Origin: an uncultured Bacilli bacterium
GTDB lineage: Bacteria; Bacillota_I; Bacilli_A; RF39; UBA660
Assembly: GCA_947629405.1 (NCBI GenBank)
Contig: CANRDL010000003.1
Location: 11,526-75,525, forward strand
DNA length: 64,000 nucleotides
Direction of reading: 5' to 3'
Part shown: positions 25,911-28,900 of the stretch, piece by piece
Position numbering within the stretch: the first letter of the stretch is position 1
Layout: each line of letters opens with the position of its first letter
Notes under the pieces: model-generated
What the model saw: the letters and a program-made list of their open reading frames with translations, nothing else
Told to the model about the DNA's origin: nothing
Databases searched by the model: none
Made by a program: the position numbers and the translations under genes

Positions 25911-28900
25911 ATGAATAAATTAAAAAATCTTATCATGTTATTTTTAGTCGTTGCTTTATTACCTTTAACTGTTTCAGCAGCTGATAAATTAAATTTAAAA
26001 GTGAATAAAACAGATTTGAAGGTTGGAGACGAAGTTGTTGTTAGTGCAAACATTCCGGGTAATGAGGATTACTATGCCGCTTTTGCAACTTTAAAATATG
26101 ATGAAAATGTTTTTGAAAAAATAGATGATACAAATTTCTTTATTACTGAAAATGTAATGGATGTTACCTATAATAAGAAAAATCATAAATTTGCTATTCT
26201 TAATAAGAATGGAAAAAATGAAAATGCCTTATTTATGGTAAGTTTAAAAGTTAAAGATAATGCCAATTCTGGTGATACTAATATTGCTTTGACTAATATT
26301 TCGATTTCTGATGGCGATAAAGAAGTGAATTTTCCGAAAGTTTCAAAGAAAGTTTCGGTAAGTGGCTCAAATAAACAGGCTATGGCTTCTAACAAAATTA
26401 CGGATGATCAAAACATTATTGTTAAAACTTTTACAACTGTTCCTATAATTATTATCCTTTCTATTGTGGCAATTATTTTATTTATTACGATAGGATATTT
26501 GTATTTCCATCATCGTGATAAAAAGAAAACAATTAATACTTTAAAAATTTTAGCTATTTTATTAGTTGGCATAGTTTTAGTTTTATTTGGAATTAATTAT
26601 CATAAACAAGATATTGATAAAGACAAAAATAAAGATTATAGTGACTCTAAAAAAATTGTTGATTATATTCTTAAGATTGAAGATTCTCAACAGGGAGATT
26701 CTGCTTATGATATAAATAATGATGGGAAAATTAATGTTAAAGATGTAGCAAGACATGTTAAAAATTTAAAAAAAATAAATTATAAAGTTGAATTAAAACC
26801 AGGACAATTCAAATATTATTATAAAAAAGATGAAAATATTACTTTAAACTTTAGTGCTCAAGTAACTAATAATGTTAAAATCCAAGAAGTTTATGTTAAT
26901 GGTAAAAAATATAAAGTTGATGGTAATTATTCAGTTACTATAGATGCAACAAAGAAAGCTGGTATTCATAATTTTACAATTTCGAAAGTAGTTTTAGCAA
27001 ATGGAGAGACTGTTGATACTAACAGCATAACATTTACCGTTGATATTTTAAAAGAGGAGCCAACGGTAAAAACTGTTAGTTATGATGCTAAAAATCAAAA
27101 GCTTACTGTTTATAATAATGATATAGATAAAGCATTAGCGGATGCCAAGCTTGTTATTGCAAAGGGTAAGGATGTGTCATACGAATCAGTTTATAAAGAA
27201 TTATATGATACAGATTATAATAATTCTAATGGCAATATTGACCCAGATCAAGAAGAACAAATTGGCGATTCAGAAATTGATGCTGAGATAGTGTATGAAG
27301 AAGATTTAAGTGTTGCTAAAGATGAAAATAAATTAGATGAAGTTAAGCTAAAATTAGGTGAAACTTATAAAATATTTGTTATTGGTAGTTATGATTTAGA
27401 TAGTCATCTTGGTGATAAAAACTATTATAAAAGCCAAAAACTTTATGAAAAAGAGTATATTAATGGTGAAGTAACTATAACTCCAATTAATACCTTAAAT
27501 TATATTGAACAAAATGCTTCAGCTCAACTTCAATTTGAAGTTAATATTCAAATTGATGATGATGTAATGGCTCAATATTTAAATCAATCTACTATTTCCA
27601 AAGTTGTTATAGACGGAATAACTAGAGACATTACTTATGTTGATGGTCATTATGTTTTATCTTTAAATCCTAGTAGTGTTCCTGATGAAAAAGATCATAT
27701 TATTTCTTCATTAATTTTTAATGATGGTACAGAAATTCTATGTAATTATAATTTTAAATATGAGGTATTAAAAAGCAAACCGCAATTTGAAAATTTTGTA
27801 TATCATCATAGTAGCAAGAAAATAACATTTACTTTAAATGATAAAGATAAAGCTTTAAAAGATGGTAATGTTGTAATTACTAAAGAAGGTAGTAATACGC
27901 CAATATTTGAACATAAAATAGATGCATCTTTAATTAATTTTGAATATAAAACTGATGAACTAGAAGAAGGAAATCATTATACTGTTAAATTAGAAGGAAA
28001 ATATGATTTAGATAGTGATGATACTAATGAAGAAAATGAAGGAAATATACAATATGAACAAAGACTTACAGTTCATGATGTTAAATTAACTGCTGTAGAT
28101 GATACCTATTTTGCCCAAAAAGGTGCTGAAGTTGAGTTAAAGTTTAATGCTAATATTACACCACAAGATGATGAAAATGATAATGATATTATTACTGATA
28201 TTGTTATTAATGGAGAAACTATCAATAATCCAACTCTTAATGCTGATGGTTCTTATAGTGTTAAAGTAACTGCTCCCGCTGAAGCAGGAGTTAAAGATTA
28301 TAAAATAACCAAAGTAACTTTAGGTAATGATGAAATAAATACTAATTCAACTTTTAAAGTTGATGTATTAAAAGATAAACCAACTATTGAAAATTTCTAT
28401 ATTGATGAATCTAGAGAAGAAACAAATATTCCGGAAATTAAATTTAATTTAATCGATAACGATAGTGCTTTAAATATAGATAATTCTGGTACGATAGTCA
28501 TTAAAGATGAAGAAAAAAAGACGATTTCTACTAATAATTTTAGCGGAAACGGCGATATATCTTTAGATTTAAATAAATTAAAGGGAAAATATGAAGAAGG
28601 AAAGACTTATTATTTAGATATTTTACTAAATTATGATTTAGATTCTGATAGCAAAAATGGGCAAAATGCCGTAACAAATGAAGTTGTTGAAAATTATCAA
28701 GATAAAGAATTTAAAATCTATAAAGCTACTCTTAAATTAGCTAGTGAAGATAACTTATATTTTGAAAAAGCTGAAACTAAATCTATTAATGTAAATGCTT
28801 CAATATCTCCTGCATCTGATTCGGTTAATATCGGCTCATTTATAATGGCTGATGGAGAAGATGTTCCAGCATTATTAAATGATGGTAATTTAGCTATCCA

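Follow-up and report, generated by a model that had tools for sequence, protein, structure and literature searches.

Surface anchors and docking modules

The M26 proteases of the Zmp/IgA1 type are major host-interaction factors. To our knowledge it has never been explained mechanistically how an LPXTG motif at the N-terminus retains a protease when the protease is on the C-terminal side of the sortase cut. [quoted passage not shown]

Cohesin-dockerin pairs hold proteins together in other settings. The Clostridium perfringens NagJ cohesin and NagH dockerin (structures 2jh2, 2o4e, 2ozn and 2vo8) serve host-directed enzymes, not cellulases, and reside on separate secreted enzymes, which they join. 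ScaE of Ruminococcus flavefaciens is a single-cohesin, sortase-attached protein that is made from its own gene and anchors other proteins. Adaptor scaffoldins such as R. flavefaciens ScaC, like the protein described here, combine cohesin and dockerin on a single polypeptide (PMC4081043), but their two modules differ in specificity and bridge other proteins, and they possess neither a transmembrane (TM) hairpin nor a catalytic domain.

The window analyzed here (the whole 64-kb stretch of DNA) encodes a giant surface metalloprotease of 3,086 amino acids in one ORF at 25911..35171 on the forward strand, on which all features listed below lie. The segment that had drawn attention in an earlier note on this DNA (25983-26768, corresponding to aa 25-286) is the N-terminal anchoring cassette of this M26 (Zmp-type) protein. 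It shares with the streptococcal proteases the catalytic family (Peptidase_M26_C, HEXXH and GLUG) and the order in which the parts follow one another, from signal peptide through an anchoring element, two hydrophobic segments and repeats to the protease. The comparison had already been made in that note, and the position of the streptococcal LPXTG and TM hairpin is as stated there (PMC3518915). It differs in having a cohesin between signal peptide and TM1 and a dockerin after TM2, neither of which is described for the streptococcal Zmps, and in having no G5 or Peptidase_M26_N match. The LPXTG and the second signal-peptidase-like site are missing from the window protein, although a sister clade shares them with the streptococcal anchor. 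The author of the note knew of no described example of the cohesin-hairpin-dockerin layout, and none was found in the searchable literature.

The gene and its product

A ribosome-binding site, GGGGGAGG, read from the sequence at 25895..25902, lies 8 nt before the ATG at 25911. Hydropathy delimits a Sec signal peptide (aa 1-23, 25911..25979) with the n-region MNKLKN, an h-region and the c-region TVSA|AD, which is the cleavage site near VSA-AD that had been proposed; the AXA-type end is kept in all six aligned homologues. Beyond the anchoring cassette comes a stalk (26781..31610) of seven tandem Ig-like units of ~200-230 aa, in which Big_7 gives weak matches. Each unit ends in [VI]L[KR]xxP (VLKDxP in four of the seven), at aa 379, 619, 819, 1033, 1232, 1459 and 1673. 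The GLUG and M26 catalytic regions (31833..35171) extend to the stop codon, with the zinc site HETAH at aa 2677. Membership in the Zmp/IgA1-protease family is established by this HEXXH site together with the Pfam Peptidase_M26_C domain (PF07580, E 2.9e-36 over 722 aa); Glug also matches (E 5.5e-8). NCBIfam models for ZmpA/B/C recognize the window protein at E 1e-39 to 1e-44, but the scores of NF046017-24 (75-150 bits) lie far below their curated cut-off of 3000 bits. Judged by these profiles, the protein is a distant family member and not an orthologue of the streptococcal ZmpA/B/C/D groups. Two antisense ORFs, 25814-26053(-) and 26183-26395(-), are regarded as mechanical by-products in or beside an AT-rich gene, there being no support for either.

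The cohesin

The domain that follows the signal peptide (aa 25-151, 25983..26363) had been called cohesin-like, and its AlphaFold2 (AF2) model bears this out. A nine-stranded jelly-roll beta-sandwich of ~130-150 aa that matches solved cohesins was taken as the mark of the fold, and the model has it, with the sandwich at aa 28-151 (pLDDT 84-91) and cohesins as its top 21 matches in a Foldseek search of the PDB. The best of these is the NagJ cohesin 2jh2_A (E 4.7e-9, TM score 0.77, rmsd 2.5 Å). A second AF2 model, from which the hairpin was deleted, gave the same Foldseek result, with single-chain cohesins only. The NagJ cohesin is also the best PDB match by sequence (phmmer, E 0.02), so that the C. 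perfringens pair provides the nearest solved structures on both counts. As modelled, then, the N-terminal domain is a genuine cohesin fold. Pfam Cohesin (PF00963) has no match to the window sequence at E<=10; it does match three of six close homologues (best E 3.6e-10) and four of seven distant members, and the family profile finds the PDB cohesin 5g5d_A (E 3.5e-4). Since the window domain scores below the Pfam threshold, its membership among cohesins rests on fold and transitive homology; conservation (see below) is in keeping with it.

The dockerin

The second module (aa 234-290, 26610..26780) has two predicted Ca-binding loops, loop 1 DIDKDKNKDYSD (aa 234-245, 26610-26645) and loop 2 DINNDGKINVKD (aa 267-278, 26709-26744), 33 residues apart. 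Exactly as had been claimed, D or N occupies positions 1, 3, 5, 9 and 12 of both, leaving all five Ca-ligand positions intact; position 6 of loop 1 is K, the usual G being absent. AF2 places a helix after each loop (243-255 and 276-287). The arrangement is that of a type I dockerin (PF00404): two loop-plus-helix units at a spacing of ~33 residues. Against a cut-off of 22.9 bits, Pfam Dockerin_1 gives 25.6 bits when the 70 aa are scored in isolation; the score drops to 21.2-21.5 bits if 300-330 aa are supplied, and a scan of the whole window protein returns no match. Relatives score 28-50 bits, all seven distant members lying above the cut-off, and the family profile finds the PDB dockerins 4fl4_A (E 2.7e-4) and CelS 1daq (E 0.008). 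The HMM searches that the earlier note had proposed as a check give a divided answer, the dockerin being marginal (above the cut-off on its own, below it in context), the cohesin being recognized in some homologues and not in the window protein. The loops, spacing and profile matches identify the segment as a genuine dockerin. In many clade A relatives (the window's clade) inserts of up to ~170 aa split the dockerin repeats and the second helix is polar, so that a canonical dockerin fold is doubtful for the clade as a whole.

The membrane hairpin

Between the two modules lie a flexible linker (aa 152-176, 26364..26438; AF2 pLDDT 42-54), which has no LPXTG and is closed just ahead of TM1 by the clade-conserved motif VKTFTTVP, and two membrane-spanning hydrophobic segments of the streptococcal-anchor type. 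These are found at 167-201 and 206-232 by hydropathy and at 177-200 and 205-231 as AF2 helices, and the two helices and basic loop of the original description are thereby confirmed. In the assignment used here TM1 (aa 177-199, 26439..26507) runs from outside to inside, the short loop HHRDKKKTINTLK (aa 200-212, 26508..26546) is cytoplasmic, and TM2 (aa 213-228) returns to the outside and is followed by a juxtamembrane NYHKQ (together 26547..26609). An N-terminus outside the membrane follows from the signal peptide, and the inter-helix loop (net charge ~+4) is the sole strongly basic segment; by the positive-inside rule the loop is therefore cytoplasmic. The prediction is accordingly that cohesin and dockerin are side-by-side neighbors on the outside of the membrane, where the earlier note had placed both. 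The dockerin begins 5 residues past TM2, and the cohesin is leashed to TM1 by 25-36 aa in clade A and by 24-147 aa in clade B.

No LPXTG-like motif ([LIVFSP]Px[TA]G) was found anywhere in the 3,086-aa window protein, and a rule-based check found no acceptable signal-peptidase (-3,-1) pair after the TM2 h-region, the tail of which reads LFGINYHKQ|D.

A cassette conserved throughout the family

With a threshold of E<1e-30 a family profile gathers 91 representative clusters, and with E<1e-10 it gathers 280; the order of parts recurs among the 150 clusters listed. In 55 of 55 related genome loci, signal peptide, cohesin, two TM segments, two dockerin loops and HEXXH follow one another in the same order; some genomes have two paralogues. 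(The seven distant members referred to above include the cluster that holds WP_271845996.1 of the cultivable Clostridium tertium; its sortase motif reads LPQTG, and a mature protease is predicted to begin right behind TVAA|SS.) Survey of 154 homologous N-termini, which the earlier note had called for, found two dockerin loops in 146 by a strict pattern and in seven more by eye, with one degenerate, so that the dockerin is retained alongside the cohesin in at least 153 of the 154. Mean identity of the cohesin within the window's clade is 46%, compared with 36% for the adjacent Ig domain, and dockerin repeat 1, at 58%, surpasses every other N-terminal segment. In each of two clades that share only ~27-30% identity, no N-terminal segments are better conserved than cohesin and dockerin. 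In these alignments the cassette is a family trait, not a product of chance, and its two docking modules are constrained more strongly than their surroundings.

Such constraint bears on the most skeptical reading of the locus, that the modules have no cohesin-dockerin function, the cohesin serving as an Ig-like spacer or as a binder of host or glycan, the dockerin as the Ca-stabilized base of the stalk, and their pairing being a relic. The Pfam score of the window cohesin, the split dockerins of clade A with their polar second helix, and the lack, in the window's clade, of processing signals that would call for docking are all compatible with it. Conservation of both modules across clades so far diverged, loss or degeneration of the dockerin in a single N-terminus among 154, and the intact Ca-ligand positions in both loops speak against it, and we consider it highly improbable.

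Processing signals in the sister clade

The two clades differ in what surrounds the hairpin. Of 40 clade B proteins, 15 have an LPXTG-type motif between cohesin and TM1, where chance would give 0.0006 per protein; sites of the V-Y-A/AXA type end TM2 just before the dockerin, V-Y-A in 28 of the 40 and x.A in 37. The corresponding numbers for the window's clade are 0/80 and 3/80; going by these counts, both processing signals have been lost there or were never present. A sortase motif combined with a signal-peptidase-like site would give a wall-linked cohesin and a released dockerin-protease. This layout agrees with the model of a second signal-peptidase site in streptococci (PMC3518915). The N-terminal piece of a clade B protein (signal peptide, cohesin, linker, LPXTG, TM, basic tail) in fact has the architecture of ScaE, with the difference that the anchor is in frame with its presumed cargo; the window protein departs further from ScaE in that the sortase motif is missing. 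Lacking either signal, proteases of the window's clade probably stay covalently anchored by the hairpin.

Two proposals of the earlier note need to be amended in this light. The proposition that the cohesin-dockerin pair replaces LPXTG holds to the extent that the window's clade has no LPXTG, but fails for those sister-clade proteins in which the cohesin lies upstream of an LPXTG-type motif. The suggestion that the pair holds the protease on the cell after cleavage fits the relatives better: with no LPXTG and no second signal-peptidase site in the window protein, retention after cleavage has no evident role there. A wall-less host, which might have explained the missing LPXTG, was considered and rejected, since a PASTA-domain Ser/Thr kinase gene at 38745-40475 of the window implies that peptidoglycan is present.

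Does the cohesin bind its own dockerin?

A cleavable signal peptide exports the cohesin, which a 25-aa linker connects to the TM hairpin with its basic loop in the cytoplasm; on the predicted topology the chain re-emerges as a dockerin flush with the membrane, and beyond it come the long Ig-like stalk and, last, the protease. In the scheme that we propose, Ca-dependent binding would join the cohesin to a dockerin, either that of its own chain or that of a neighboring copy. The sister clade may preserve the ancestral design: its gene can be seen as a ScaE-like anchor (signal peptide, cohesin, LPXTG, TM, basic tail) fused to a dockerin-tagged secreted protease, for which TM2 would act as the "signal peptide"; cutting by sortase and signal peptidase would leave a wall-linked cohesin and a free dockerin-protease that re-associate non-covalently. 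In the window's clade the pair would form an intramolecular clasp across the hairpin or a head-to-tail oligomerizer. The domain order and its conservation suggest that proteases of the family may dock onto their own N-terminal piece. We give about even chances to the account as a whole, that is, an anchoring cassette in which cohesin binds dockerin of the same or a neighboring chain, with the window's clade hairpin-anchored and the pair serving as clasp or oligomerizer. That one gene supplies both anchor and cargo, the cohesin being retained on the cell (in membrane or wall) and the dockerin at the start of the protease docking onto it, is put forward somewhat more tentatively.

Structure prediction offers a hint of binding. 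When aa 24-176 of the window protein were fused to aa 229-298 (hairpin deleted), the AF2 model reached a pTM of 0.75, compared with 0.65 for native 1-300. The cohesin makes up only 57% of the fused chain and the linker is disordered, so that by our calculation a pTM of 0.75 needs the dockerin to be placed with confidence; the argument, being one from pTM, is indirect. Covariation is less favorable. Mutual information (MI-APC) between cohesin and dockerin columns, calculated for 120 non-redundant sequences (Neff ~100), exceeds a cohesin-Ig control for the family as a whole, but the division into two clades confounds this signal; inside the clades its excess over shuffles is no greater than that of the cohesin-versus-Ig control.

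The absence of a within-clade covariation excess over the control is one of several observations that would suit a network of different partners, with the tethered cohesin recruiting other dockerin proteins and the dockerin plugging the protease into separate scaffoldin-like cohesins, in the manner of an adaptor. We know of no scaffoldin with both modules (CipA, ScaA, ScaB, ScaC) in which the cohesin binds its own dockerin, and self-binding is avoided by the scaffoldins described so far. Relatives of the cohesin occur in proteins built as signal peptide-(cohesin)4-dockerin and signal peptide-(cohesin)2-dockerin (P0087, P0125) and in a small signal peptide-cohesin-dockerin protein (P0142). There is also one instructive split arrangement, at locus L059, where a 225-aa protein (P0151; signal peptide, cohesin, linker, TM, basic tail), a free-standing, membrane- or wall-anchored ScaE-like version of the anchor, is encoded directly after the gene of a secreted protein that ends in a Dockerin_1 module (53 bits); here a membrane-anchored cohesin is paired with a different, adjoining dockerin protein, although the two genes also serve the main reading as a split analogue of the proposed anchor and cargo. 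(Most other short cohesin-TM proteins that might have passed for naturally split genes are fragments at contig ends or come from very small contigs, and L059 alone is informative.) A network is nevertheless difficult to reconcile with the strict 1:1 stoichiometry of the modules, which flank the hairpin in constant positions in ~150 clusters, and with a dockerin that would sit flush with the membrane beneath the wall, within reach of few partners. The predicted pTM also suggests a defined arrangement of cohesin and dockerin.

The genomic surroundings likewise fail to supply the partners. A search of the 64-kb window and of ±10 kb around each of the 55 loci, 933 kb in all, found no further cohesin or dockerin of this kind, and no sortase, signal peptidase, partner cohesin or partner dockerin was found near the window gene. 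The latter is flanked by an NMT1-type ABC transporter and an unannotated K/E-rich ORF, in an arrangement that is not syntenic with the 55 loci; for the genes adjoining the C. tertium gene no sortase Pfam match is recorded. On balance the network is unlikely.

Self-association could also be confined to neighbors, each cohesin binding the dockerin of the next molecule to give dimers, head-to-tail chains or patches, with binding in cis sterically excluded. The conservation evidence serves this variant equally. The dockerin is held 5 residues from TM2 while the cohesin is on a longer leash, so neighbors could be reached, and some genomes provide two paralogues. On the other hand, the adjacency of TM1 and TM2 in the hairpin and a linker of at least 25 aa should make the local concentration in cis very high, and the single-chain AF2 prediction is already compact. 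We regard association in trans only as quite unlikely and continue to favor a pair that can close on the same chain as well as on a neighbor.

What the cassette may mean for the family

The arrangement differs from that of NagJ/NagH: there the modules belong to separate enzymes, and here they share one polypeptide, with a TM hairpin between them, at the N-terminus of a protease. If the proposed docking is correct, the processed relatives would be self-assembling two-piece surface displays made from a single polypeptide, and in these a wall-linked N-terminal fragment that holds a Zmp/IgA1 protease non-covalently would provide a mechanism for N-terminal LPXTG anchoring. The cohesin-dockerin pair would have been selected for cis binding across a membrane hairpin. 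Even if the modules do not bind each other, a widespread and unannotated domain architecture remains. The cassette also suggests a compact, genetically encoded display tool. Because the docking pair is placed exactly at the two ends that processing would separate, the LPXTG puzzle becomes open to simple experiments, and the reach of cohesin-dockerin biology would grow to take in giant gut-commensal proteases and a geometry in cis that straddles the membrane.

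Architecture of the N-terminus

The protease is the product of one large gene (25911..35171, + strand; 3,086 aa), preceded by a ribosome-binding site, GGGGGAGG, read from the sequence, and the anchoring cassette lies at its start. Peptidase_M26_C (E 2.9e-36) fills the C-terminal third, with HETAH at aa 2677, and a GLUG motif is also present. The NCBIfam ZmpA/B/C/D models match with E values of 1e-21 to 1e-44, far under their curated cut-offs, so that the protein belongs to the Zmp/IgA1-protease family only distantly and is not a streptococcal orthologue. Between N-terminus and protease stands a stalk (26781-31610, +) of seven tandem Ig-like units of ~200-230 aa, every one with [VI]L[KR]xxP at its end (as VLKDxP in four) and an internal [SKNT]YDLD-like motif; its Pfam matches are confined to weak Big_7. 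Two antisense ORFs overlapping the gene start (25814-26053, 79 aa, and 26183-26395, 70 aa, both - strand) are unsupported, mechanical products of DNA of 24.5% GC and were rejected.

The succession of signal peptide, cohesin, TM hairpin and dockerin in this protein is, in our judgement, very nearly certain. The signal peptide (aa 1-23, +) ends at TVSA-AD. The cohesin (aa 28-151) is modelled by AF2 as a beta-sandwich with pLDDT 84-91, and its 21 best Foldseek matches in the PDB are all cohesins, led by that of Clostridium perfringens NagJ (2jh2_A; E 4.7e-9, TM 0.77, rmsd 2.5 A), which is also the best PDB match by sequence (E 0.02); a second AF2 model gave the same Foldseek outcome. Two hydrophobic helices follow, TM1 (aa 177-200) and TM2 (aa 205-231), linked by HHRDKKKTINTLK. 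Both dockerin loops, DIDKDKNKDYSD and DINNDGKINVKD, keep all five Ca-ligand positions; their spacing is 33 residues, and in the AF2 model a helix comes after each. The cohesin, hairpin and dockerin that an earlier note had proposed at 25983-26768 are thus confirmed. On the isolated segment Dockerin_1 reaches 25.6 bits, against a cut-off of 22.9, and in context 21.2-21.5 bits. Pfam Cohesin does not match the window sequence itself, though it does match three of six close homologues and four of seven distant ones. The family profile recovers solved dockerins and one solved cohesin.

Topology was assigned by rule, from the signal peptide and the placement of basic residues. Given the signal peptide, the N-terminus lies outside; the inter-helix loop is the sole strongly basic segment, so that TM1 would cross inward and TM2 back outward. 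Cohesin and dockerin are accordingly both predicted to be extracytoplasmic, as the earlier note had argued. The cohesin is held on a disordered leash of 25 aa; the dockerin begins 5 residues past TM2.

Distribution and genomic surroundings

Scanning a single genome from each species turned up 55 related loci, nearly all in rabbit-gut "uncultured Bacilli" MAGs. Every untruncated locus encodes a protein of 2,400-3,100 aa with signal peptide, cohesin, both TM segments, the two dockerin loops and a distal HEXXH. Exhaustive profile searching gathered 91 representative clusters at E<1e-30, a number that rose to 280 when the threshold was E<1e-10; the same order of parts is seen in proteins as long as 6,693 aa. 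The co-occurrence of the two modules, surveyed in homologues, held almost without a break: the two dockerin loops follow the strict pattern in 146 of 154 hairpin-bearing N-termini and are recognizable by eye in seven more (153 of 154), with one degenerate. Cohesin and dockerin are the best-conserved N-terminal parts. Within the window protein's clade (clade A), the two dockerin repeats show 58% and 46% identity and the cohesin 46%; the Ig domain that follows falls to 36%, the linker to 33% and TM1 to 25%. One cluster includes Clostridium tertium WP_271845996.1, annotated merely as "ZmpA/ZmpB/ZmpC family metallo-endopeptidase". In C. tertium (L061:1-5607, GCA_028207255.1) its gene lies ~4.4 kb downstream of the gene of a giant surface protein (>2,322 aa) with SdrD_B repeats, and an RnlA/RnlB toxin-antitoxin pair lies ~5 kb further downstream of it.

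The window's protease gene stands alone, with a divergent NMT1-type ABC transporter operon upstream. Directly downstream is an ORF (35297-36637, +) for a K/E-rich, probably coiled-coil protein of 446 aa, for which there is no Pfam match and no counterpart adjoining the 55 homologous loci; the genes immediately flanking the protease have no synteny with those loci. Beyond it lies an RlmN-PP2C phosphatase-PASTA Ser/Thr kinase cluster (36968-40475, +), and the kinase's three PASTA repeats argue that the host bears a peptidoglycan wall. The window also holds a ribosomal protein L10 leader (683-796, +; 62.5 bits), upstream of an ORF at 807-1304, and one tRNA gene (52524-52597, +).

Processing signals in two clades

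Comparison of 80 non-redundant clade A proteins with 40 of the Clostridium-like sister clade (clade B) separates the two. An LPXTG-type motif precedes TM1 in 15 of the 40 clade B proteins (among them LPQTG, IPKTG, SPKTG and LPYTG; 0.0006 per protein would be expected by chance) and in none of clade A. A V-Y-A-type site marks the end of TM2, 6-10 residues ahead of the dockerin, in 28 of 40 (x.A in 37) but in only 3 of 80 in clade A, where TM2 ends ..NxNKK and the dockerin follows immediately. The linker from cohesin to TM1 is 24-147 aa long in clade B and 25-36 aa in clade A; the dockerin loops are spaced 34 aa apart in 35 of 40 clade B proteins and 31-200 aa (median 49) in clade A. Low-complexity inserts rich in N/D/K/E part the dockerin repeats of many clade A homologues (loci L003, L041, L047 and L049; proteins P0002, P0013 and P0023).

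By sequence, LPXTG, TM1 and the basic loop of clade B together form a canonical cell-wall sorting signal, and the same loop with TM2 and V-Y-A resembles a signal peptide. [quoted passage not shown] Relative to this streptococcal Zmp N-terminus there is an extra cohesin ahead of the LPXTG and an extra dockerin after the second site. That ZmpB and IgA1-protease retention requires sortase is supported by recent proteomics (PMC13604702). The most economical reading for clade B has four steps: signal peptidase would remove the first signal peptide; sortase would join the cohesin to the wall, making the N-terminal piece an anchor like ScaE, a wall-linked cohesin (PMC4081043); a second signal peptidase cut would follow TM2; and the freed dockerin-protease would bind the wall-linked cohesin.

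Neither an LPXTG nor a V-Y-A-type site was found in the window protein, from which we infer that it stays anchored by its hairpin. In the places where its relatives have these signals, clade A carries two juxtamembrane motifs, [IV]K[TV]F[TS][TN]xP before TM1 (VKTFTTVP in the window; 26418-26441, aa 170-177) and NxNKK in the gap between TM2 and dockerin (NYHKQ; 26595-26609, aa 229-233), both at the same place in L001-L055, and these may amount to a signal for sorting or processing that has so far escaped recognition.

Possible self-docking and a possible wider network

In the window protein the pair might serve as a clasp in cis, spanning the hairpin, or connect neighbouring copies. Whether cohesin and dockerin dock with each other at all we regard as an even question. 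The evidence in favour is indirect. When aa 24-176 were fused to 229-298, AF2 gave the model a pTM of 0.75, even with a disordered linker and a cohesin that makes up just 57% of the chain; by our arithmetic, such a value calls for a dockerin placed with confidence. Within 933 kb (the window and the loci) no further cohesin or dockerin of this type was found. Counted against binding is the covariation of cohesin and dockerin within clades, which shows no excess over the same-protein control, and known scaffoldins that bear both modules avoid self-binding. A network of hetero-partners is a serious rival to self-binding, since adaptor-like proteins with several cohesins carry related ones: SP-(cohesin)4-dockerin (P0087, L056:1110-3341) and SP-(cohesin)2-dockerin (P0125, L057:209-1546). 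Cohesins of this type are also present in a 235-aa SP-cohesin-dockerin protein (P0142) and in a cohesin-TM fused to a multi-TM region (P0075). A two-gene cassette with a gap of 40 bp (L059:4158-8318; GCA_964402195.1, CAYOBB010000011.1) is a natural split analogue and looks like a free-standing pair of anchor and cargo: its first gene encodes a secreted protein of 1,147 aa with GLUG, internal dockerin-like pairs, Big_2, Big_3 and a C-terminal Dockerin_1 (53 bits), its second a 225-aa SP-cohesin-S/T-rich linker-LPAAG-TM-basic tail.

The earlier note knew of no described example, and a full-text literature search likewise yielded nothing relevant on cohesin and dockerin with M26, IgA protease or transmembrane metalloprotease, or on dockerin with Zmp. 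The same-type cohesins of P0087, P0125, P0142 and P0075 suggest a broader non-cellulosomal cohesin-dockerin system in gut Firmicutes. All the parts are of known kinds; the novelty lies in how they are arranged, in how widely the arrangement occurs, and in its connecting Zmp N-terminal processing with cohesin-dockerin docking.
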